From an uncultured Chloroflexia bacterium (lineage in GTDB: Bacteria; Chloroflexota; Anaerolineae; Anaerolineales; Anaerolineaceae), in contig CAVWEE010000005.1 in the NCBI GenBank assembly GCA_963753895.1, positions 19,036 to 83,035 of the forward strand: a stretch of DNA of 64,000 nt, in the 5' to 3' direction. The position numbers and the translations under genes are program-made. The notes under the pieces were generated by a model that was given only the letters and a program-made list of their open reading frames with translations, was not told where the DNA came from and searched no databases. Shown one piece after another: positions 7,989-22,212 of the stretch (position 1 is its first letter; every line of letters starts with the position of its first letter).

Positions 7989-9404
7989 ATGGAAAAATAT
8001 ACTGCGGTGATCATTGGCGGCGGGCCTTCGGGCCACAGCGCAGCCGTGCGCATTGCCCAGCTTGGCGGCCGGGTGGCGTTGGTGGAACGGGATTATATCG
8101 GCGGCATCTGCACCAACTGGGGCTGTACGCCCAGCAAGGCGATGATTGAGTCCGCGAAGATTGCCCGCGATGTGAAAGACAGCCATAAATATGGCATTGA
8201 CGTGTCGGACTTCCAGATCAATTTTGCCCGTGTGGCTGCCCGCCGCAATCAGGTGGTGTTGAACACCCGCCAGGCAGTCACTGACCTGCTGCTGCATCAC
8301 AAGATTGACCTTTTCCAGGGCGAGGCGCAGATGGTTGCCCCCGGCAAGGTGCGCGTGTTGAATGGCAAGCTGGATGATGAAGGCGAGACGATGCATTACA
8401 GCGGGGGAGAAGAAATGCTGGAAACGGAGAACATCATCATCGCTACTGGCTCCAAACCGCTTATTCCCGGCTTTGTGGACAAGAATGATCCGTCCGTTGT
8501 CAGCAGCAATCGCCTGATCACGATTGATGAGCGCCCCGAGAAGCTGACCATTGTCGGCGGCGGGGTGATTGGTCTTGAGTTTGCGACCATTTTCTCCAAC
8601 CTGGGCAGTCAGGTGACTGTGGTGGAATTCCTCGATCGCGTGCTGGCCGGTATGGATGAAGACGTGTCTGCCGAGATCACCCGATTGATGGAAGCCAATG
8701 GTGTGCGCATCCTGACTTCACACAAGGTGCAGTCGGTCAAAGATGGCGTGCTCACTGCGGAAAACCAGAAGACCGGTGAAGAAGTGAAGATTGATTGCAG
8801 CATGACCCTGGTTGCTATCGGACGCGTGGCTGTTGTGCACGAAGAAACGTATGACGCGCTGGGCATTGAATATACCCGCCGCGGCGTGGATGTCAATGAC
8901 TATCAGCAGACCAACGTGCCCGGCATCTGGGCGATTGGCGACGCTACCGGCAAATCCATTCTGGCCCATGTGGGTATCCAGCAGGGGATTGTGGCTGCCG
9001 AGAATATCATGGCGAAGGCCGGACAACCGCTGCGTGAAATGGATTATGAAGTTATCCCGGCAGTCATTTACAGTCTGCCCGAAATTGTGGGCGTGGGGAC
9101 TGTGCCGGAAAATCTGGATGGTGTCCAGGTGGTCAAGGTGCCTTTTGCTGCGAATTTGCGCGCCGGGATCGAAGATTTCACCGACGGCTTCATCAAGTTG
9201 TGGATCAGAGACGACCGTGTGGTGGCTGCACAGGCGATCGGGCATGGTGTTTCCGAGATCATGCAGGAGCTTGCCAATATGATCGCGCTCAAAACGGATA
9301 TTCATGATGTGGCCGAAATCATCCATGCCCATCCGACTTACGCCGAAATCATTCGTTCGGCGCTGGAATATTCGCTGGGCAAAGCGGTGGATTTCTATAT
9401 CTAG
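7989..9404 (+). CDS. lpdA: Dihydrolipoyl (dihydrolipoamide) dehydrogenase
   Basis: ORF 7863..9404; the start is likely ATG 7989 (AAGGAGAAAAA RBS). Shows the FAD motif VIIGGGPSGHSAA, the redox disulfide GGICTNWGCTPSK, an NAD motif and a C-terminal HAHPTYAE interface motif. Confidence 0.9.
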   Translation: MEKYTAVIIGGGPSGHSAAVRIAQLGGRVALVERDYIGGICTNWGCTPSKAMIESAKIARDVKDSHKYGIDVSDFQINFARVAARRNQVVLNTRQAVTDLLLHHKIDLFQGEAQMVAPGKVRVLNGKLDDEGETMHYSGGEEMLETENIIIATGSKPLIPGFVDKNDPSVVSSNRLITIDERPEKLTIVGGGVIGLEFATIFSNLGSQVTVVEFLDRVLAGMDEDVSAEITRLMEANGVRILTSHKVQSVKDGVLTAENQKTGEEVKIDCSMTLVAIGRVAVVHEETYDALGIEYTRRGVDVNDYQQTNVPGIWAIGDATGKSILAHVGIQQGIVAAENIMAKAGQPLREMDYEVIPAVIYSLPEIVGVGTVPENLDGVQVVKVPFAANLRAGIEDFTDGFIKLWIRDDRVVAAQAIGHGVSEIMQELANMIALKTDIHDVAEIIHAHPTYAEIIRSALEYSLGKAVDFYI

Positions 9405-9501
9405 AATAATCTTACGCAATTTCAGCAGGCTTCTTTCAGACGGAAGAAGCCTGTTTGCTTTATAATGAGGAACATCAGGTGAAAACAGGAGGACAGGATC
9501 A

Positions 9502-10512
9502 ATGACTGAAACCAAAACAACGCACATGGAACCCCGCGAGGATGTACGCACTTTATGGGGTGGCATTCTTTTCAGCGCAGCTGTGGTAGCTCTGGTGTGG
9601 GCGCTGGGCAATCGCCTTGATGCGATTGAATTGCTGCCGGATACTGGCCCGGCCTGGTATGAATGGCGGCTGCCCGTGCCAACTTTCTGGTCGCGCTTCA
9701 CTTCCTGGGGACTGTATGTGATCCATCAGGTCGGCTTCTGGTATTTCATTGCCCGCGCCCAGCGTGAGAAGCTGAAATACAGCACTAGTCTAAATCGCTG
9801 GAACAAGTGGGCTTTGGGTTGGAATGCGTTCTTTGTCCTTGTGCATTTTGCGCAAACCCACCTGTGGTATGACGGTCTGGCGCAGGACATGGCCGTATGG
9901 ACGTCGCAAGGCTCGGTGATCGTACTGCTGGTGTGGGTGCTACTCATGGAAAACAAGCAGCGGGGGTTGTTCTGGGGCAAGAAGGTTCCGATTCGCAAGC
10001 AAATCATCCAGTGGGCGCGCAAATACCACGGGTATTTCTTTTCGTGGGCGATTATCTATACTTTCTGGTTCCATCCGATGGTCAGTACCAGTGGTCATCT
10101 GGCAGGATTCTTTTATATGTTCCTGTTGATCTTGCAAGGTAGTTTGTTCTTTACCCGCATTCATATCAACCGGTGGTGGAAAGTGGTGCAGGAATCATTG
10201 GTGATGATCCACGGCGCGCTGGTAGCAGTGATGCAGGGCAACAATATGTGGGGCATGTTTGCGTTTGGATTTGGCGGTATCTTCGTGCTGACCCAAATGC
10301 ACGGACTGCGGCTATCCAAAGCGGTGCGCTGGGGCATACTGGCCGTCTATTTGACGGCAGCGGTGCTGGTTTACAATTTCTTGTTTGGCATACAGAACAT
10401 TCATCAGATCACCTGGATCCCATTTATTGAGTACCTGGGTGTATTTGTATTTTCCCTCCTGATTGGGTTGGGACTACGGCTGGCAGGAAAATGGCAGCCC
10501 ATAGAAGAATAA
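9502..10512 (+). CDS. Polytopic Trp-rich membrane protein, unknown function
   Basis: Intact 336-aa ORF with ~8 hydrophobic segments and 23 Trp residues. No family recognised. Confidence 0.6.
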   Translation: MTETKTTHMEPREDVRTLWGGILFSAAVVALVWALGNRLDAIELLPDTGPAWYEWRLPVPTFWSRFTSWGLYVIHQVGFWYFIARAQREKLKYSTSLNRWNKWALGWNAFFVLVHFAQTHLWYDGLAQDMAVWTSQGSVIVLLVWVLLMENKQRGLFWGKKVPIRKQIIQWARKYHGYFFSWAIIYTFWFHPMVSTSGHLAGFFYMFLLILQGSLFFTRIHINRWWKVVQESLVMIHGALVAVMQGNNMWGMFAFGFGGIFVLTQMHGLRLSKAVRWGILAVYLTAAVLVYNFLFGIQNIHQITWIPFIEYLGVFVFSLLIGLGLRLAGKWQPIEE

Positions 10513-12309: not shown

Positions 12310-14012
12310 ATGGCTGCAAATGAAACATCTGAATCAAAGGACTTTGTTCCGCGAGATTTTATCCGCACGATCATTGATGAGGATCTTGCCAATGGCAAGA
12401 ACGATGGGCGGGTGCATACCCGTTTCCCGCCGGAGCCGAATGGGTACTTGCACATCGGGCATGCAAAGTCGATCTGCCTCAATTTTGGTATTGCGCAGGA
12501 TTTTGGCGGATTGTGCAATTTGCGTTTTGATGACACCAATCCCTCCAAAGAGGATGTGGAATATGTTGACTCCATCCAGGATGACATCCGCTGGCTGGGC
12601 TTTGACTGGGAAGACCGTCTTTATTACGCCTCGGATTATTTCGAGCAGATGTACCAGTATGCCGTTCAGTTGGTTAAAAAAGGCAAGGCATTTGTGTGTG
12701 ACTTGACCGCGGACGAGATGCGCGAATATCGCGGCACGTTGACCGAACCTGGCAAAAACAGCCCTTACCGCGACCGCCCGATTGAAGAGAACCTCGATTT
12801 GTTTGAGCGCATGCGCGCCGGGGAATTCCCCGATGGCACGCGCACCCTGCGCGCCAAAATCGATATGGCCTCGCCGAATATGAATATGCGCGATCCGATC
12901 ATTTACCGCATCGTACATGAGTCCCACCACAACACTGGTGACGAATGGTGCATCTATCCGATGTATGATTTTGCCCACGGCATCGAAGATTCGATCGAGA
13001 GAATCACCCATTCTATCTGTACGCTTGAGTTTGAAGATCACCGCCCGTTGTATGACTGGTTCCTTGATGAGTTGGGCGTTTACCATCCACAGCAAATTGA
13101 GTTTGCCCGCCTGAACCTGAACTACACGGTCATGAGCAAGCGCAAATTCATCAAGCTGGTGCAGGATGGGCATGTGCGCGGATGGGATGATCCCCGCATG
13201 GTGACCATCTCCGGCATCCGCCGGCGGGGTTATACACCGTCATCGATCCGCAAGTTTGCCGAGCGGGTAGGGGTTGCCAAGAACAACAGTGTAATCGACA
13301 TGGCCTTGCTGGAGCATACCATCCGTGATGAACTGAACGACACTGCGCCGCGGGTGATGGCTGTACTGCGTCCGTTGAAAGTGGTGCTCACCAATTACCC
13401 CGAAGACAAGACAGAGCGTTTCGAAGTGCAGGACTTCCCGCATGATGCTGAACGCAATCAGGTGCGCACGGTTCCTTTCTCACGTGAGATTTATATCGAG
13501 GAGACGGACTTCATGGAAGAGCCGGCACGTAAATTCTTCCGCCTGGCCCCTGGCAAGGAAGTCCGCCTGATGGGCGCATATTACATCACCTGTGATGAAG
13601 TGGTGAAGGACGAGGATGGCACGTGTGGTGGAATTGCGCTGCACGTATGACCCCGAATCCCGAGGTGGTACAAGCCCGGATGGCCGCAAGGTGAAGGGTA
13701 CTTTGCACTGGGTCTCGGCAGAACATGGCGTGGCAGCTGAAGTGCGCCTGTATGACAAGCTGTTCCTGGTGGAGAACCCCAACAAGGCGCCTGATGGTGA
13801 GGATTTCACTGCGCATTTGAATCCTGAGTTCGCTGGAAGTACTCATCGGCTGCATGGTAGAGCCTGGCCTGGCCGACGCCACGCTGGATGACCGCTTCCA
13901 GTTCATCCGTCACGGGTATTTCTGTCTGGACTCCGGTGATTCAAAGCCGGATGCGCTGGTCTTCAACCGCACGGTTTCGCTGCGTGATACCTGGGCGAAG
14001 ATGAAAAAGTAA
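12310..14012 (+). pseudogene. glnS: Glutaminyl-tRNA synthetase, two frame breaks as sequenced (probably sequence errors)
   Basis: Class I motifs [14 protein letters not shown] and VMSKRK are in ORF 12310..13650. The C-terminal anticodon-binding part continues in ORF 13616..13891, then in a third frame ([17 protein letters not shown] ... [16 protein letters not shown]) to the TAA at 14010..14012. Confidence 0.9.
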
Positions 14013-14034
14013 GAATACAGAATTCCTTGAAGAG

Positions 14035-14064
14035 CCTCCCGCTGATTGAGCGGGAGGTTTTTTT
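14035..14064 (+). terminator. Rho-independent terminator
   Basis: CCTCCCGCT-gattg-AGCGGGAGG followed by TTTTTTT. Confidence 0.85.
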
Positions 14065-14259
14065 GTTGCTGGTAATGCTGCTAATGCTTGTCTTTATCCT
14101 CTCACGGCAAATGGTGGAGGGTGCGATTCCTCCACTGACCTGATTTTGCATATCCTCCCAGCGACGGGGCTAAGACGGGCCTTGAGACCCATCCCAAATT
14201 GTAGGCATTTCGACTATCCTTTATAAGACGAAATCAAATCAACATTAACGAGGGATAGC

Positions 14260-15702
14260 ATGAAAAAAACAGGTAAAAAAATCTGGATCATTGCCGGTGT
14301 GATCGCAGCGGTGGTGGTTCTCTTTGTGTTCTTGGTCAATCCGATGCTTCAGGCAAGGGCAGCAGCAAATTCTGATGAAATCCAGACGGTGGAGATCAGC
14401 CGCGACAACCTGGTGGCTGAAGTGGGTGGTACCGGCACGGTGCGCGCAAATCAGTCAGTGCAGTTGAGCTGGCAGACGAGCGGCCGCGTGGATGATGTGC
14501 ATGTGGCCTTGTTGGACAACGTGCAGACCGATGAGCATTTGGCTGAGCTGCTGGAAAGTTCGCTTTCGCAGAGCATTATTCTTTCAGAATCCGAGCTGAT
14601 CAATGCGGAGCGCAGGCTGGATGATTTGCTGGCTTCAAACGCTACCACGGCCCAGGCACAGCTTGCCCTGGCCAAAGCGGAGATTGCCCTGGAAGATGCT
14701 GAGGAGGACCGCGAAAGCAAAAAATACCAGCGTGCCAGCTCAGCCACGCTGGACGGCATCCGCGCGGATCTGATCCTGGCACAGCAGACTTTGGATGATG
14801 CCAAGGAGTTTTATTCTGCATTTGAAGACAGTGCCGAGACCGATGTTGGTCGGGCGGCGGCGCTCAGCCAGCTTTCGAATGCCCAAAAAGCCTATGACCG
14901 TGCGAATTACAATCTGCAATATGCCGAAGCCTTGCCAGAAGCGAATGAGGTTGCAGAGGCGGAAGCCGAGGTGGAAGTCGCACAGGCCAATCTGGCCGAT
15001 GCTCAGCGCGAATGGGAGCGTGTTAAGGAAGGCGCTGATGATGATGACATCACAGCCGCGGAGGCGCAGGTATCTGCCGCTCAGGCTGCGTATGATCTGC
15101 GCTATATCACCGCACCTTTTGCAGGAACAGTAACGGATATGGATTTGCTGCCTGGTGACCAGGTGACGATGGGGACATACGCCATGCGTGTGGATGATCT
15201 GAGTCGTTTGCTGGTTGAAGTGGGCGTGCCGGAAGTAGATATTAACCTGATTGCCATCGGACAGCCTGTGCGCCTGACATTCGACGCCATTCAGGGCGAG
15301 GAATACAATGGCGAGGTGGTTAAAGTGGCCCAGGTGGGCACAGTAACCCAGGGCGGTGTGGACTTCACCGTAACGATTGAATTGACCGATCCTGATGAAC
15401 TGGTGCGCCCCGGCATGACGGCGGCTGTGAATATCATTACCTATGAATTGAGTGACATCCTGATCATACCCAATCGCTCGGTGGAACGTGTGGATGGCAA
15501 GCAGGTTGTTTACAAAGTGGTGGATGGCAAGTATGAACCTGTGGAAGTCACCCTGGGTGCTTCGCAGGACAGCTATAGCCAGGTGCTTTCCGGTGACCTA
15601 AAAGAAGGCGATACGATTGTGGCCAATCCTTCTAAATTGACGGATGTGATGGATGCGATGCCTGGTGCGCCGCGCCCTGGCGCTGGCGGCGGAGGGTTCT
15701 AA
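14260..15702 (+). CDS. HlyD/MacA-family periplasmic adaptor (membrane fusion protein)
   Basis: Intact 480-aa ORF with an N-terminal TM anchor, a long coiled-coil ([19 protein letters not shown] ...), then beta-barrel/lipoyl-like segments. The stop overlaps the next ATG (TAATG). Confidence 0.85.
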
Positions 15703-16388
15703 TGAGTGATGTTGTTATTCAAGCCCGCGATCTGGTCAAGAGTTACCAGATGGGTGAAATTGAAGTGCATGCCCTGGCAGGCGTGAGCTTCGACATCCAG
15801 CGCGGAGAGCTGCTTTCGATCATGGGGCCTTCGGGTGCTGGTAAGTCGACGTTGATGAATATCCTCGGCTGCCTATCCCTGCCGACCAGCGGGAGATTTC
15901 ATCCTTGACGGCGAGCATGTATCAGATCTGACACAAGATGAGCTGGCCGACATCCGCAACCGCAAGGTGGGCTTTGTGCTTCCAGAGCTTCAATTTGCTG
16001 TCGCGGTCCACGGCGCTGGCGAATGTGACCCTACCCATGCGGTATGCCGGCGTCTCGGAACCTGAGCGCAACGAACGTGCGCGCAAAGCCCTGGAATCAG
16101 TAGGGCTGGGGGACCGGGTACACCATAAGCCAACCGAACTTTCCGGCGGCCAGCAGCAGCGCGTGGCGGTTGCCCGCGCTCTGGTGAACAATCCGGCCAT
16201 CCTGATGGCTGATGAGCCAACAGGTAATCTGGATTCAAAATCAGGACGGGAGATCATGGATTTGCTCCTTTACCTTGAACCGCGAACAAGGTGTAACCGT
16301 GATTGTCGTTACCCATGACCCCGAGATCGGCGCAGAGGCACATCGCATCATCAAACTGAAAGATGGTTTACTGGAGAGTGGCGCATGA
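15702..16388 (+). pseudogene. MacB/LolD-type ABC transporter ATP-binding protein, two frame breaks as sequenced
   Basis: Walker [10 protein letters not shown] is in ORF 15702..15908. The signature [15 protein letters not shown] and Walker B ILMADEPT are in ORF 15938..16318. The tail ([32 protein letters not shown]) returns to the first frame. The stop overlaps the next start (ATGA). Confidence 0.85.
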
Positions 16389-17626
16389 ATATTGGCGGTG
16401 TGATCATGGAGGCTTTAGAGAGCCTTAATGCAAACAAAATGCGCTCAGGTTTGACGATTATTGGTATGGTGATTGGCGTAGGCGCGGTGATTGCGATGCT
16501 GTCTTTGGGAGAAGGGGTGCAGGCGAGCATTACCGGTGAGATCAACAGCATGGGCAGCAACTTGATGTTCGTTTTTTCCGGCAATGATGGGGAAGAGGTC
16601 CGCAATGTGGAGCCTTTGAAGGAGGCCGATGTAGATGCGCTCAACGATCCATTTCAACGCCCCTTCTGTGGGCAAGGCAGTTGCTTCGCTTGGTGGAAAT
16701 GTTGAGGCATCCTTATGGTGGCGAAGTCGGGCTCCTATAGTCTGACGGGGACGACAACGGACTATGCCAGTGTGCGCAGTATTGAAGTTGAATGAAGGTG
16801 AATTTTTAACCGAGGAGCACCAGCTTGGTCGTGGCATCGGTGGCTGTGATCGGCCCGGATGTGGCAGAGCAGTTGTTTGACCGCACAGAAGATGTGGTGG
16901 GCGAGACCATTCGCCTGGACGGCCAGCCATTCCGCGTGATCGGCCTGACCGAAGCGAAAGGCGGCGGTGCGATGGGCAGTGAAGATGATATTATCATCGT
17001 TCCTCTATCCTCAGCACGCACGCGTCTGGTTTCCCGTGACGAATATGGGCAGGTGGATGTGATTTTCATCCAGGCAGTGGATGCAGGATTCGGTGAATGC
17101 TGCTACAGACGAGGTAAGCGAATATCTTCGTGACCGTCATCGTATCGACCCGGGTGAAGCGGATGACTTCACGATTTTTACCCAGAGATTCTGTTGCCGA
17201 GATGGCAGAGAGCATTACCAATGTATTGATCATCTTCCTGGGCGGCGTGGCTGGTATTTCTCTGCTGGTGGGTGGTATCGGTATTATGAACATCATGCTG
17301 GTCTCGGTGACCGAGCGCACACGCGAGATTGGACTGCGCAAGGCGCTGGGTGCGCATAAGTCGCATATCCTCACTCAATTCCTGACCGAGTCGGCTTTAT
17401 TGAGTTTGATCGGCGGCGTGTTGGGGATCCTGCTGGGGTGGGGGCTGGCGGTAGGGGTTGGCATTTATCGCAGAGAGCGAATGGTACGGATATTTCTCCG
17501 GTCTTCACTGCCAATTCGATCCTGCTGGCGACGTTGTTCTCGGCTGCGGTGGGCATCTTCTTTGGCATTTACCCCGCCAACCGCGCGGCCAGTCTGGAGC
17601 CGGTGGAGGCGTTGCGCCATGAATAA
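16385..17626 (+). pseudogene. MacB/FtsX-type ABC transporter permease, many frame breaks as sequenced
   Basis: The MacB_PCD/FtsX sequence (MEALESLNANKMRSGLTIIGMVIGVGAVIAM ... VAVIGPDVAEQLF ... [15 protein letters not shown] ... [19 protein letters not shown]) is scattered over ORFs 16385..16705, 16825..17133, 17081/17130.. and 17438..17626. I count about 7-8 breaks. Confidence 0.8.
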
Positions 17627-19574
17627 ATCGACCTTCAAAAATGGCTGGCGCAAGGCATTGATGACTGCTGTGTTGGTCTCCCTGCTCTGGACATCAGATC
17701 AGGTATCGGCGGCGCCGCACGCGGTGATTGAGCCGGATGAGCCTGTGCTGGCGGTTGACCTGAATGAGAATAGCAAAAGCTCGTCGCCGGATCACTTGCT
17801 GGCTGTTGGTGGAGACTCTGTTCTTCGCTGCGGACAGCACCGAGACTGGTGTGGAACTATGGCTGAGCCTACCGCCCTATGATGCGGACAGCACCCGTCT
17901 GGTGGCAGACATCTTCCCCGGCGAGGGGAACAGCAACCCGGCTGGACTGGCTGCTGTAGGCGAGACGGTTTTTTTCCAGGCGCGGGGCACCAGCGGCGGT
18001 GTGGAATTATGGCTGACTGAGCCCCCGTACTACTCGGCGCGGATGGTGACCGACCTGAACCCGAATGGGGATTCGAATCCCGAATGGCTGACCGGCGTTG
18101 GTAATGCTTTGTTCTTTGTGGCGGAAGGAATTGGCAGCGGGCGCGAGGTATGGAAGACCCAACCGCCATATACAGAAGTATCCCTGGTGGAGGATGTGTT
18201 TTCCGGCGGGGCCAGCTCTAACCCGAAGCGCCTGACCGCGCACGGCTGGACGTTGTTTTTCGTGGCGCACGACAGCAGCGGGGAGGAACTTTTCAAGAGC
18301 ATCCCGCCCTATAACAGTGCCAGCACGGAGCGCGTAAAGCAGATCAACGCGGAGGGCTATGCCTCCCCGGATTCATTTGCTTTCATCGATGACACCCTAT
18401 TCTTTGCGGCAACAGACCGCGATGGCCACCGTGAGTTGTGGAAGTCACGCCCGCCCTATGACGAGTACAGTACCGAGCTGGTGGACGAGTTCGATGAGCG
18501 CGATTACAGCTCAGAAGCTTTCGACCTGCATGCTGCCAACGGCACCCTGCTTTATACGGGGTACCGCCTAATGAGCGGCTTTGAGCTGCGCAAGGTGGAG
18601 TATCCCTACACGGCCACGTACATGTCACGCGTAGAAGATATTGGGACCGGATTTTTTAGCTCCATGCCGGACAAGAAGATGTCGATCGATGGCACGGTGT
18701 TCTTCATCGCGGATGATGGCGTGAACGGGCAGGAGTTGTGGAAGTCTGAATATCCTTATACCGAAGAAGTCAACTGACCTGGTGAAGGACATTCGCCCGG
18801 GCAGCGCCGCATCGCAGATCTCGGATCTGACCGCGGCGGGAGATACGCTTTTCTTCCGCGCTGATGATGGCGAATTTGGCATGGAGCTATGGCAATCTGC
18901 GCCGCCGTATAATGAAAACAGCACGGCTCGGGTGGGCGATATCCAGCGCGGGGGCAGTTCCTCGCCCACGGACTTGACAGCTATCCATTCTTCGCTGATC
19001 TTCGCAGCAGGGAACATGGATTATGGACGTGAGCTGTGGAAGGTGGGCCGGTTCTACGGTTTGCCCAACTCCGGCTTTGCGCCGGACCAGGTGACCGCCC
19101 TGCCTGAGCAGCCTGCTGTGCAGGAATACCAGACAATGGAAACGATGATGCCTCACTATCCCGGATCTGGGTGTGGCAACGGAGATCGTGGGCGTGCCCC
19201 TGGGCACCACTGGCTGGGATACGACCTGGCTGGGAGCCAGTGCCGGGTATCTGGCAAGCACAGCTTTCCCCACACATGCGGGTAATACCGTCCTTACGGC
19301 GCATGCCGTGCTGGAAAACGGCCAGCCGGGGCCTTTCCATGACCTGGTGTCCCTGAATTGGGGCGACCGGATTGAGGTGCAGGCCTGGGGCGAGCGCTTT
19401 GTATATGAAGTGCGCAGCCAGCAGGTGGTTTCGCCGGATGATGCCAGCCCGCTGGCGCATGAAGACCTGGATTGGCTGACCCTGATCACCTGCCATGATT
19501 ATGATCCTGAGACAGGAGATTATGCCAGCCGCCTGGTTGTACGTGCTGTGTTGATCGAGGTCGTGCCGGAATAA
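17619..19574 (+). pseudogene. Secreted ELW-repeat (ELWxxDGT-repeat-like) propeller protein with C-terminal sortase domain; three frame breaks as sequenced
   Basis: ATG 17619 overlaps the permease stop. Signal peptide [31 protein letters not shown]. Nine ~50-aa repeats with core G-x-ELW-x-(S/T)-x-PPY are in ORFs 17764..18777 and 18782..19285. LPNSGFAP lies at 19061..19084. The sortase-like domain (ORF 19173..19574) has LTAH (His), TLITC (Cys codon at 19491) and a C-terminal Arg. Breaks are near 17815, 18778 and 19150. Confidence 0.75.
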
Positions 19575-19628: not shown

Positions 19629-19696
19629 CACCCCATCCTAACCTTCCCCAAAAGAACTACATTTTTGGGGAAGGCATTTGTTAAATTTAGTGGGGG
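19629..19696 (+). repeat. Hairpin repeat family, copy B
   Basis: CACCCCATCCTAA-CCTTCCCCAAAA-(loop)-TTTTGGGGAAGG-CATTTGTTAAATTTAG, a 12-bp perfect stem. Confidence 0.7.
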
Positions 19697-19862
19697 TGGT
19701 TTTTGAAGATGGATTATTTTCCTTATGCTGATGGAAGCGGAAATTAATCGCGTGTAGATAAATCATTGTACGGCAAGCCGATCACTTTAGTGGTTATGCC
19801 GGTGGAGAAAATGGCTGGGGGAGTGAAGTGATGCTAACGCATGAGGGTGGACGGTGGTACTG

Positions 19863-19931
19863 CACCCCATCCTAACCTTCCCCAAAAGAACAGCGTTTTT
19901 GGGGAAGGAGTTTGTTAATGGTTTGTGCGGG
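19863..19931 (+). repeat. Hairpin repeat family, copy C
   Basis: CACCCCATCCTAA-CCTTCCCCAAAA-(loop)-TTTTGGGGAAGG-AGTTTGTTAATGG, lying 234 bp after copy B. Confidence 0.7.
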
Positions 19932-20067
19932 TATTTCTTAAGGTTGTAACTTAAGTTTGCTGATTGGAAAAGCAATGCGTGTAGATGAGTAATTGTACGG
20001 CAAGCCGACCACTTTAATGGTTATGGCTTATGGGGAGAATGGCAGAAGTCGTTCCTGCAAGGGGATG

Positions 20068-20727
20068 TCAGTTGTCCTTGCGCACGATGCCTTCCCGCCA
20101 GGCGAAGACGGCGGCCTGGGTGCGGTCGGAGAGGTGCAGCTTGTTGAGGATATTGCTAACGTGGCTTTTGACGGTCTTCTCGCTGATTACCAGGGCTTCG
20201 GCAATTTGGGCGTTGGACATACCGTCCGCGATGCGGCGCAGGACTTCCTGTTCGCGCTCGGTGAGGGCATTATAGGAATTGATCGCTTGATCCTGATCAC
20301 CGCGCAGTTCGGCCATCATTCGGCTGGCAACTTTGGGGTGTACGGTGGCTTCGCCGCGGGATGCGCTGCGGATGGCTTCGGCCAGTTCCTGCGGTTCAAT
20401 GTCCTTGAGCAGGTAGGACAGCGCCCCGGCCTTGATGGCGGGGAAGATGTGGGTATCTTCGTGATAGGAGGTGAGCACGATCACCTGCGAACGCGGGCTG
20501 ACGCGCCGCACGCGCCAGGTGGCTTCAACCCCGTCCATCTGGGGCATCAGCAGGTCCATGAGGACTACGTCCGGGGCCAGCTTTTCGGCCAGTTCCACGG
20601 CTTCTTTGCCGGAGGCAGCTTCGCCGACGACTTCAATGTCTTTTTGTGCCGAGAGGTAGGCAGCCACGCCGCCGCGCACGATGGCGTGGTCATCGACCAG
20701 CATGACAGTGATCTTGTTTTCACTCAT
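20068..20727 (-). CDS. NarL/LuxR-family response regulator
   Basis: Start is ATG 20727 (GAGGAG RBS) within ORF 20068..20880. REC domain (VMLVDDHAIVR ... VLMDLLMPQMDG) plus a LuxR HTH (LTEREQEVLRRIADGMSNAQIAEALVISEKTVKSHVSNIL). Intact. Confidence 0.9.
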   Translation of the reverse strand: MSENKITVMLVDDHAIVRGGVAAYLSAQKDIEVVGEAASGKEAVELAEKLAPDVVLMDLLMPQMDGVEATWRVRRVSPRSQVIVLTSYHEDTHIFPAIKAGALSYLLKDIEPQELAEAIRSASRGEATVHPKVASRMMAELRGDQDQAINSYNALTEREQEVLRRIADGMSNAQIAEALVISEKTVKSHVSNILNKLHLSDRTQAAVFAWREGIVRKDN

Positions 20728-22212
20728 TGGGGTTCTCCTCTTGAGGTCTTGAGCGGCAGGCTGAAGATGAGCCGCGTGCCGTTTTCTCGAGCTGATCATT
20801 TCCAATTGTCCGCCTTCGGCCTGGATGCGTTCCCGCATGGAGTGCAGGCCCATGCCCTTGTGTTCCTGCGTCGGTGTCAAAGCCGCGCCCGTTGTCGCTG
20901 ATCTCCATCAGCAGCTGGGTGGTGTTGAAATGCAGGATCACGCTGGCTGCTGTGGCGCTCACTGTGGCGATTGATGTTGGAAAGGCTTCCTGGGTGATAC
21001 GGAAGAGGGCTTGTTCGGTTTCTTTGGGCACGCTGCCACTGCCTTCCACCTGGAAGATGGTGGGGATATTGCTGCGTTTTTCCCAATCGCTGATGTGTTC
21101 GCGCAGGGCTTCACCAGTCCCTGGTCTTTCAAGCTGCACCGGCCGCAGGGTATGGATGAGGGTGCTCAGTTCTCCCTGCGCCTGGCGTGAAAGCTGGTTG
21201 GCGGATTCCAGCTCGCGGCGGGCCTGTTCGGGGTTTTCTTCCCATTGCAGTTTGGCTCGCGCCGAGGGTCATGGTGATGGCGAAGACCTGCTGTTTGACG
21301 CTGTCATGCAGTTCGCGCGCCAGACGGTTGCGTTCTTCCAGGGCGGCCAGATTTTGCCTGGTTTCCATCATGTTTTGCAATTCCAGTGACATGTGGTTAA
21401 GCCCATCCGCCAGTTCGCTGATCTCGTCGCCGGTATTGTCATTGACGCTGACGGAGAAATCACCCTTGCCCCCAGGCAGCGGCGGCGTCGGAAAGTCTGT
21501 TCAGACGGCGGGTGAGCCAGCGCGCCATGATCAAGCCAAAAAAGATGCCAATCACGCCTGCGATGGCAAAGAAGAATGCCAGGGTTGGGACGAAAGCTTG
21601 CAAGCCAAGCTGAATGGTTTCCTGAAAAGTGATGGGGGATAATCTGTGCAAAAATGATCCCGACCAGATCTTCATTGTTGAAAAATGGGAACAGCGACGG
21701 ATAATTTTTTGTTATCGTTGACGTGATACATTTCTGCTGCATCGGTGTCAATATCTTTTACTCTGTTGATCAGCGCTGCTTCTTCGGATGAGATGCTTGT
21801 CAGGATGGGAATATTTTCTTCAATGATTTCGGTTTGGTTGGATGCGAGAACAAAACCGGATCTGATCCAGGATGACAAGCACACTCTTGCTCATGCTGAA
21901 GGGAATGGCTACATCCATTTCTGTCTCATACAGGCGACCGCCCGGTCCTCTGATGTTCATGAGCCAGTCTTTGATGGTTTCCTGGTCGGGCGGATCCTGG
22001 GTGAGGGCTGGAATCAGTGTGTTGGCTTCTTCGCGGATCACCCGGATGGCGGCCAGGGGCAGTTCGGGCTGGTTTTGGGCAAAGGAGGCAAGCCCCATGA
22101 AGAAAATTAATTCGATCAGAAACAGGGCAGTCACAGTAACCAGGGTATAGCCCAGGGTCAGTTTCCACTGCAGGCGTTTCATGGGGGAAAAGAATTGGCG
22201 GATTTTGTTCAT
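20724..22212 (-). pseudogene. NarL-type sensor histidine kinase (TM-HAMP-HisKA_3-HATPase_c), ~7 frame breaks as sequenced
   Basis: The sequence runs through ORFs 21820..22212, 21672..21884, 21460..21675, 21129..21392 (NRLARELHDSVKQQVF) and 20720..21139 (DNGRGFD). The tail ENGTRLIFSLPLKTSRGEPQ ends in ATGA overlap with the regulator. One break lies in the C5 run at 21469..21473. Confidence 0.8.

Follow-up and report, generated by a model that had tools for sequence, protein, structure and literature searches.

Sortase biology has been built on a separate, membrane-bound enzyme that serves many membrane-held substrates. In canonical sorting by sortase A of Gram-positive bacteria, the LPXTG signal of the substrate lies about 35 residues from the C-terminus and is followed by a hydrophobic segment and a positively charged tail, while the enzyme is a membrane-anchored protein of its own. 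Class C sortases, among them Actinomyces oris SrtC-1 (PDB 2xwg), the Enterococcus Ebp sortase (24rr) and SrtC1/C2 of group B Streptococcus (GBS), are small membrane proteins with a C-terminal membrane helix and a lid that carries a DP[FWY] motif. This lid is regarded as a pseudo-substrate, its DP[Y/F] overlapping the LPAT peptide bound in sortase A (PMC3493515). Here we analyzed a 64,000-nucleotide stretch of DNA (the window) from an uncultured Anaerolineaceae bacterium and describe a gene at 17619-19574 on its forward strand that joins an ELW-repeat propeller, an LPNSG pentapeptide and a C-terminal sortase domain. This architecture, and the membership of the gene in a family of such fusions, are near certain, although the window gene as sequenced cannot make the fusion protein because of frame breaks, to which we return below. 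The component parts are already known; the arrangement itself is uncharacterized and implies a different way to run the sortase reaction.

An earlier note on this DNA had read the locus as one secreted protein of ~650 aa interrupted by three frame breaks, with a signal peptide, nine repeats of an ELWxxDGT-type variant, a sorting-like LPNSG motif and, after a linker of about 25 residues, a sortase-like domain with His, Cys and Arg at its active site and no membrane anchor behind it. All of these elements were borne out. Once the three +1 breaks are removed, the locus reads as a single chain of 650 aa. It opens in frame 0 at an ATG (17619) with, by translation, a predicted Sec-type signal peptide of 31 aa (17619..17711, with the cut expected between ...DQVSA and AP), which is the sole hydrophobic segment of the whole protein. 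The passenger of nine ELW repeats, a predicted beta-propeller, follows at 17712..19060. The bulk of the repeat region lies in frame 1, and the last two repeats lie in frame 2 together with LPNSG (19061..19075) and the 25-residue linker FAPDQVTALPEQPAVQEYQTMETMM (19076..19150), which is conserved in a column profile of 157 sequences. The sortase domain returns to frame 0 at 19152, where it starts with LTIPDLGV, and occupies the extreme C-terminus (19152..19574, with the stop codon at 19572-19574). The chain ends 27 residues past the catalytic Cys, and no hydrophobic 19-mer occurs in it downstream of the signal peptide.

Canonical sortase A substrates likewise combine a signal peptide, a surface-type passenger and an LPxTG motif with the same positional conservation as described below, and sortase A itself has the same catalytic triad as the window and family sortases. 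The differences concern how these parts are connected. Enzyme and substrate are one polypeptide here, and a membrane-anchored enzyme is lacking. The window protein has neither the hydrophobic segment nor the positive tail of a canonical sorting signal; instead, the sortase domain follows the motif, so that LPNSG, which has Ser in place of the canonical Thr, stands ~165 aa from the C-terminus. Furthermore, unlike in canonical signals, the residues after the Gly (FAPG-x-VT-x-LP-x-QP) are conserved in the Anaerolineae family.

The sortase assignment was examined by profile and structure searches. The domain matched PF04203 with E=3.2e-22 (79 bits against a cut-off of 26.6, covering profile positions 1-124 of 125) and the generic NCBIfam model TIGR01076 (sortase_fam) with 43.8 bits against a cut-off of 39.35. 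Among the NCBIfam sortase models, this generic one alone was passed and no curated class model reached its cut-off: scores were 55.0 bits against 160 for class C (NF033745), 47 against 160 for class E, 45.4 against 165 for class D, 46.5 against 140 for SrtD, 36.6 against 158 for class GN and 34.1 against 166 for class F, with no class A match listed. The triad consists of His at 19302-19304 (in LTAH), Cys at 19491-19493 (in TLITC) and Arg at 19530-19532. All three residues are invariant across 295 family sequences, which suggests that every copy keeps catalysis. An AlphaFold model of the sortase cassette, computed with a 48-sequence alignment, was confident (predicted local distance difference test (pLDDT) 93.9, predicted template modeling score (pTM) 0.89), and its top 50 PDB matches in Foldseek were all sortases, the best being A. 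oris SrtC-1 (E=2.9e-11), in keeping with the eight-stranded beta-barrel fold of the superfamily.

Class C sortases, which share the His-Cys-Arg barrel, were nearest by both PDB profile search (E=1e-16) and Foldseek, with TM-scores of 0.63-0.66. In both them and the window protein, an N-terminal segment that can enter the substrate groove (PMC3493515) lies ~25-30 residues ahead of strand beta-1. In the window protein, this segment has no DP[FWY] lid motif and carries a full LPxTG-FAP (LPNSGFAPD) instead. Also unlike class C, which are small membrane proteins, the window sortase has no C-terminal membrane helix and forms the tail end of a large protein that is secreted. The best class C alignment places the LPxTG-FAP segment on the lid, with GFAPG opposite GLDPF of 24rr_A. 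Because the motif thus sits at the class C lid position, and that lid overlaps the LPAT peptide, an N-terminal segment at such spacing can reach the active site. In the 48-sequence-alignment model, the motif and linker (residues 11-30) had a pLDDT of ~95. Modest couplings (z ~4-5) were obtained from mutual information with average product correction (MI-APC), linking FAP with residues 88-92, which follow the catalytic His; position 14 with the second residue after the Cys; and the x position of the motif with positions 126 and 141 in the beta6/beta7 region.

The passenger comprises, by eye, nine repeats of ~48 aa with the core G-x-ELW-x-x-PPY, including one repeat with GHRELW. It scored 215.7 bits with NCBIfam TIGR04534 (ELWxxDGT_rpt; cut-off 65), for which HMMER reported six stretches in the window protein. 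Despite passing the model of the ELWxxDGT repeat proteins, it differs from them in that DGT is replaced by PPY and in that the C-terminus is a sortase cassette. A full-length AlphaFold model based on a nine-sequence alignment shows an all-beta passenger with four strands per repeat (pLDDT 80-90), and the Foldseek matches of this model were all propellers (LRP6, prolyl oligopeptidase and the sortilin Vps10p domain). Repeat pattern and model together support a predicted ELW-repeat beta-propeller of nine blades.

The window gene is no one-off: it belongs to a very large family in Anaerolineae whose passengers are of many kinds. The window protein has all hallmarks of this family, that is, LPNSGFAP at the right spacing, a C-terminal sortase and a signal peptide; its identity is 57% to the best homolog and, relative to the closest relative found, locus L001 of an Anaerolineaceae metagenome-assembled genome, 77% over the C-terminal cassette and ~76% over the whole protein. 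A search with the last 201 residues gave 119 homologs, all annotated as sortase or unnamed. While 31 of these are fragments that start past the motif, 84 of the 88 that reach its position carry xPx[T/S]G[F/Y] and four lack it. Scanning one genome per species with a nine-sequence alignment yielded 78 loci, almost all in Anaerolineae, including Ornatilinea apprima P3M-1, Leptolinea tardivitalis YMTK-2 and the complete genome of Leptolinea sp. HRD-7. The sortase-bearing open frames in these loci span 600-3,500 aa and end 27-46 residues past TLITC. The 49 open reading frames (ORFs) with a complete 5' end encode 613-3,396 aa (median 1,638 aa); 42 have a signal-peptide-like N-terminus, and none of the 49 has a hydrophobic helix in its last 220 aa. 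A profile search of 1.84 billion representative proteins extended the family to 1,466 representative clusters at E<=1e-30, again almost all from Anaerolineae, with protein lengths of up to 4,446 aa; each of the top 150 representatives has the match at its very C-terminal end.

Across the family, the LPxTG-FAP-linker-sortase cassette stands in place of the usual LPXTG, membrane helix and basic tail. The passengers in front of it include ELW and FG-GAP propellers, DUF11 arrays, SpaA-like and GEVED domains, beta-helix-like regions and immunoglobulin (Ig)-like arrays, of which the SpaA-like, DUF11 and propeller types are typical sortase cargo. Four loci contain tandem pairs of cassette genes (L028 at 2363-2944 and 8393-10510, L032, L072 and L073), each gene with its own sortase. 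Five giant passengers that otherwise look unrelated (L045, L075, L077, L018 and P0215) share the conserved stretch …S(T/H)ER(F/Y)(Y/H)DPxxxV(N/D)IY… a few dozen residues before LPxTG, which suggests that passengers of the DUF11/SpaA-like subgroup have their last domain in common. Public records list such proteins under the names ‘sortase’ or ‘hypothetical protein’, among them WP_158423395.1, KPL72770.1 and UniProt A0A0N8GLK7 from L. tardivitalis and BCY18347.1 from Leptolinea sp. HRD-7. The earlier note knew of no characterized example. Our literature searches agree with it in finding no natural passenger-LPXTG-sortase fusion, and they gave no relevant description of sortases in Anaerolineae or Chloroflexi or of a C-terminal sortase domain, but coverage of the library searched was incomplete and absence from it is no proof.

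The LPNSG motif of the window is a family-wide feature and no chance match. In the profile of 157 distinct sequences, the pentapeptide has the consensus [L/I/M]-P-x-T-G, composed of L77/I10/M6/N4 (in per cent), P100, a free x (A28, E15, D11, ...), T98/S2 and G100. It is followed by F99, A89, P92, G62/N18/D13, x, V/I, T94 and x, and the linker ends with L78, P71, x, Q77, P80, four variable positions and Y83, giving F-A-P-G-x-V-T-x-L-P-x-Q-P-x4-Y. None of the eight positions that precede the Leu is conserved, so conservation begins exactly at the pentapeptide. Invariant Pro and Gly, 98% Thr and a free x are exactly the pattern of a sortase recognition site, and this profile, with its unconserved upstream flank, is the mark of such a site placed where two modules meet. 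The distance from the motif to the TLITC of W-L-T-L-I-T-C is ~137-139 residues throughout the relatives. Ser at the fourth position, as in LPNSG of the window and LPQSG of L001, is a 2% variant. The motif is present in 144 of 146 top library representatives, the other two having Val or Ala in place of the Thr; individual variants are LPNAGFAP (L018), LPEAGFAP (P0260), LPDVGFAP (P0215) and VSGGFGFAP (L072_3).

The window and 1.19 Mb of related loci contain 78 instances of the extended motif that are followed by a sortase. Only six instances lack one, of which three belong to copies that are broken or truncated and three are chance matches within spurious ORFs. When the 5,282 ORFs of these loci and the window were scanned for a canonical LPXTG with hydrophobic helix and basic tail, two matches were obtained, both spurious.

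We consider self-processing of the motif by the family's own sortase domain to be the best reading of these patterns, with even chances of being right. After Sec export, the C-terminal sortase domain would fold, bind an LPxTG in its active site, either that of its own chain or that of a sister molecule, and cleave between Thr or Ser and Gly. The passenger, held as a thioacyl intermediate on the catalytic Cys, would then be passed to an amine acceptor of the envelope, most plausibly a peptidoglycan stem peptide, so that each passenger would bring its own single-use enzyme. For the window protein, this would mean cleavage between Ser and Gly of LPNSG, formation of an acyl-enzyme and transfer, three steps that we infer from its sequence. 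A mechanism with one enzyme per substrate is favored because every paralog keeps its own active enzyme while the surrounding loci show no substrates that stand alone. That a single chain can support the chemistry is shown by engineered sortase-LPXTG fusions, which self-cleave (tags such as BISOP; PMC2901362). These tags likewise hold a sortase and an LPXTG site in one chain, but they are man-made, use Staphylococcus aureus SrtA in the order sortase-LPXTG-target rather than passenger-LPxTG-sortase, and serve release rather than attachment. More broadly, the proposal, which views monoderm Chloroflexota of the class Anaerolineae as using a natural ‘autosortase’ display, would comprise a single-use C-terminal sortase per passenger of up to >4,000 aa, cleavage of LPxTG in cis and covalent attachment to wall or sheath, all without a membrane-anchored sortase or a C-terminal membrane-anchor signal. 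In this complete form, we rate it as somewhat less likely to be right than wrong.

A related logic is known from C-terminal domains that carry out autoprocessing and transfer in a different setting. In Hedgehog proteins, the catalytic Hint domain makes a (thio)ester with the end of the N-terminal passenger and then leaves, and the passenger becomes covalently attached to an acceptor. The likeness to the Anaerolineae cassette would be one of architecture alone, fold and chemistry being unrelated.

Several observations weigh against self-processing. By spacing, the lid Pro of class C corresponds to the Pro of FAP and not to that of LP, and the resting register of the segment is therefore uncertain and may be lid-like. 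In the nine-sequence full-length model, motif and linker are disordered (pLDDT <50), although the sortase domain is also mediocre there. The covariation from mutual information is weak and was not reproduced by mean-field direct coupling analysis (DCA), which was dominated by gap columns. In a few members, the Thr is replaced by Ala or Val or the motif is degenerate; the motif scan covered 1.19 Mb of loci, so that trans substrates may be encoded elsewhere in the genomes; and the protein, having no membrane anchor, leaves its access to lipid II unexplained. Lastly, the window gene is frame-broken and the L001 copy carries a nonsense codon.

These points bear on what else the cassette might do. 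Because the motif occupies the class C lid position, a pseudo-substrate role is a live rival: LPxTG-FAP would be a non-cleaved autoinhibitory lid, like DP[FWY] of class C, and the sortase would act in trans on other proteins. That the closest relatives in sequence and structure are class C sortases, with GFAPG aligned to the GLDPF lid of the Ebp sortase and with an accepted pseudo-substrate function of such lids (PMC3493515), speaks for this view, as do the order of the segment in the deep-alignment model and a conservation that runs 20 residues past the pentapeptide, as for a structural element. Class C lids, however, mimic x-P-aromatic alone, whereas the whole substrate consensus is kept here, including the scissile Thr-Gly. 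The 1.19 Mb around the cassette genes yielded no further protein with the motif or with a canonical tail, and an enzyme placed behind 600-4,400 aa of varied adhesin-like passengers is ill-suited to a trans-acting housekeeping role. We consider a permanent lid unlikely overall. The same kinship with class C, whose members polymerize pili, raises the question of whether the cassette is cleaved and the passenger transferred to a Lys or N-terminal amine of another passenger, as by pilus sortases, to build covalent fibers, a sheath or a surface layer. Some passengers have SpaA-like and DUF11 domains typical of pilins and adhesins, cassette genes occur in adjacent tandem, and Anaerolineae hosts are filamentous. 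The passengers, ranging over propellers, beta-helices and Ig-like arrays, are nevertheless too diverse for a common pilin-type acceptor motif, and no conserved acceptor motif was noticed, although no search aimed at one was made; cross-linking seems a decidedly slim prospect. Slimmer still is a one-shot protease that uses water as acceptor and frees the passenger into the medium. Sortases slowly hydrolyze their acyl-enzyme in the absence of a nucleophile, and no membrane anchor remains on either side of the motif once the signal peptide is removed. A secreted protein, however, requires no release step, and a 140-aa transpeptidase with intact triad on every paralog would be costly for mere hydrolysis.

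The window gene itself has three frame breaks, each of which is a net +1 base relative to the intact reading in L001, where the gene order is the same and the gene runs in one frame. By tblastn with the L001 ortholog, break 1 is one extra base in GTTGGTGGAGACT (17811; the alignment ends at 17810 and restarts at 17812), and break 2 is one extra base in GAAGAAGTCAACTGAC (18769..18773; it ends at 18768 and restarts at 18770), with the intact reading ...YPYTEE(V/S)TDLVKDI. Break 3 is one extra C in ATGATGCCTCACT (19151..19152), the intact reading being ...ETMMLTIPDLGV. As sequenced, the sortase is unreadable from the propeller frame because a stop lies just upstream in the sortase frame. This could in principle mean that propeller protein and sortase are two separate genes wrongly stitched together, as the parts lie in different frames and a GTG at 19173 opens an ORF of 133 aa. 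This ORF, however, lacks the first beta-strand LTIPDLGV, and one extra C accounts for the break. Other genomes hold about 60 relatives, including the orthologs of L. tardivitalis, Leptolinea sp. HRD-7 and O. apprima, that read passenger, motif and sortase continuously in one frame; the fusion is, therefore, no stitching artefact, the two-gene reading was rejected for the family, and we give it next to no credence for the window. Programmed frameshifting was likewise rejected because neighboring unrelated genes carry the same kind of +1 breaks.

A decaying pseudogene, as opposed to a functional gene that was mis-sequenced, is the more serious alternative for this copy. Three frameshifts fall within 2 kb, and breaks also affect three genes nearby, two of them those of the ABC ATPase and the permease. 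In L001, a TAT-to-TAA change at ~10270 (codon 599) replaces a conserved Tyr (GRYV*EVRS) and truncates the sortase before the catalytic Cys, and window and L001 both have the rare Ser at the cleavage position. Compared with L001, the window has at least ten single-base breaks at 13625-19152 (13.6-19.2 kb, ~5.6 kb), spread over four adjacent genes. Eight of the ten are clear +1 changes, and each of the remaining two would fit a pair of insertions. Against decay, the clear breaks are thus all +1 and confined to 13.6-19.2 kb, with no breaks in the three genes at 8.2-13.6 kb or in the HlyD-type gene at 14260-15645. Large deletions are absent, every catalytic residue is preserved and the ratio of nonsynonymous to synonymous substitution rates (dN/dS), computed against L001, is 0.10 for the whole gene and 0.16 for its cassette, the former implying that the gene was under selection for essentially all its history. 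Bacterial gene decay is deletion-biased. A local cluster of single-base insertions without deletions and with conserved residues kept has the look of uncorrected long reads, and the breaks are probably sequencing insertions in a locally uncorrected, insertion-prone long-read stretch. Decay in the clade of window and L001 nonetheless keeps an appreciable minority share of our belief because of the L001 nonsense codon and the Ser common to both.

If self-processing holds, an enzyme that replaces the membrane anchor and travels with its substrate would represent a second way of sorting that is stoichiometric, self-contained and possibly membrane-independent. It would explain envelope decoration in a major, poorly studied monoderm lineage, and the class C lid might then be a relic or relative of an in-cis substrate, with a bearing on how such lids originated. 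Protein engineers could gain a small self-ligating tag that is genetically encoded. Because cultured L. tardivitalis and O. apprima have orthologs, the idea can be put to a direct test.

The genes upstream of the ELW-sortase gene were assigned by tblastn with L001 proteins and by Pfam on the intact counterparts in L001 and L006. On the forward strand, they comprise an intact HlyD-type adaptor (14260-15702), a broken ATP-binding cassette (ABC) ATPase (~15642-16376) and a broken MacB_PCD/FtsX permease (~16343-17626), and the start of the sortase gene (ATG) overlaps the stop codon of the permease gene (17624-17626). Adaptor, ATPase and permease adjoin the ELW-sortase gene in the window (14260-17626) and in L001 (5223-8589), L006 (10464-13891) and L007 (10553-13895). 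They lie upstream of the sortase gene in the window and L001 and downstream in Leptolinea; as they adjoin it on either side, the linkage, which concerns the ELW subfamily only, has been kept despite rearrangement.

Downstream, a terminator scan detected a terminator-like hairpin with a perfect 12-bp stem, CCTTCCCCAAAA-N9-TTTTGGGGAAGG, on the forward strand at 19642..19674, 68 nt after the stop codon. Just 3' of the sortase gene, a unit of ~230 bp is tandemly duplicated (19629-19798 and 19863-20025; blocks 83-91% identical), and each copy of the unit carries the hairpin, the second one at 19876-19908; the rest of the window has none. A search of this repeat against Rfam gave nothing above noise. 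Beyond it, on the reverse strand, lies an intact LuxR-type response-regulator-like ORF of 270 aa (20068-20880), followed by what appears by eye in the ORF list to be a histidine-kinase-like C-terminal fragment, the whole stretch extending over 20068-21139.

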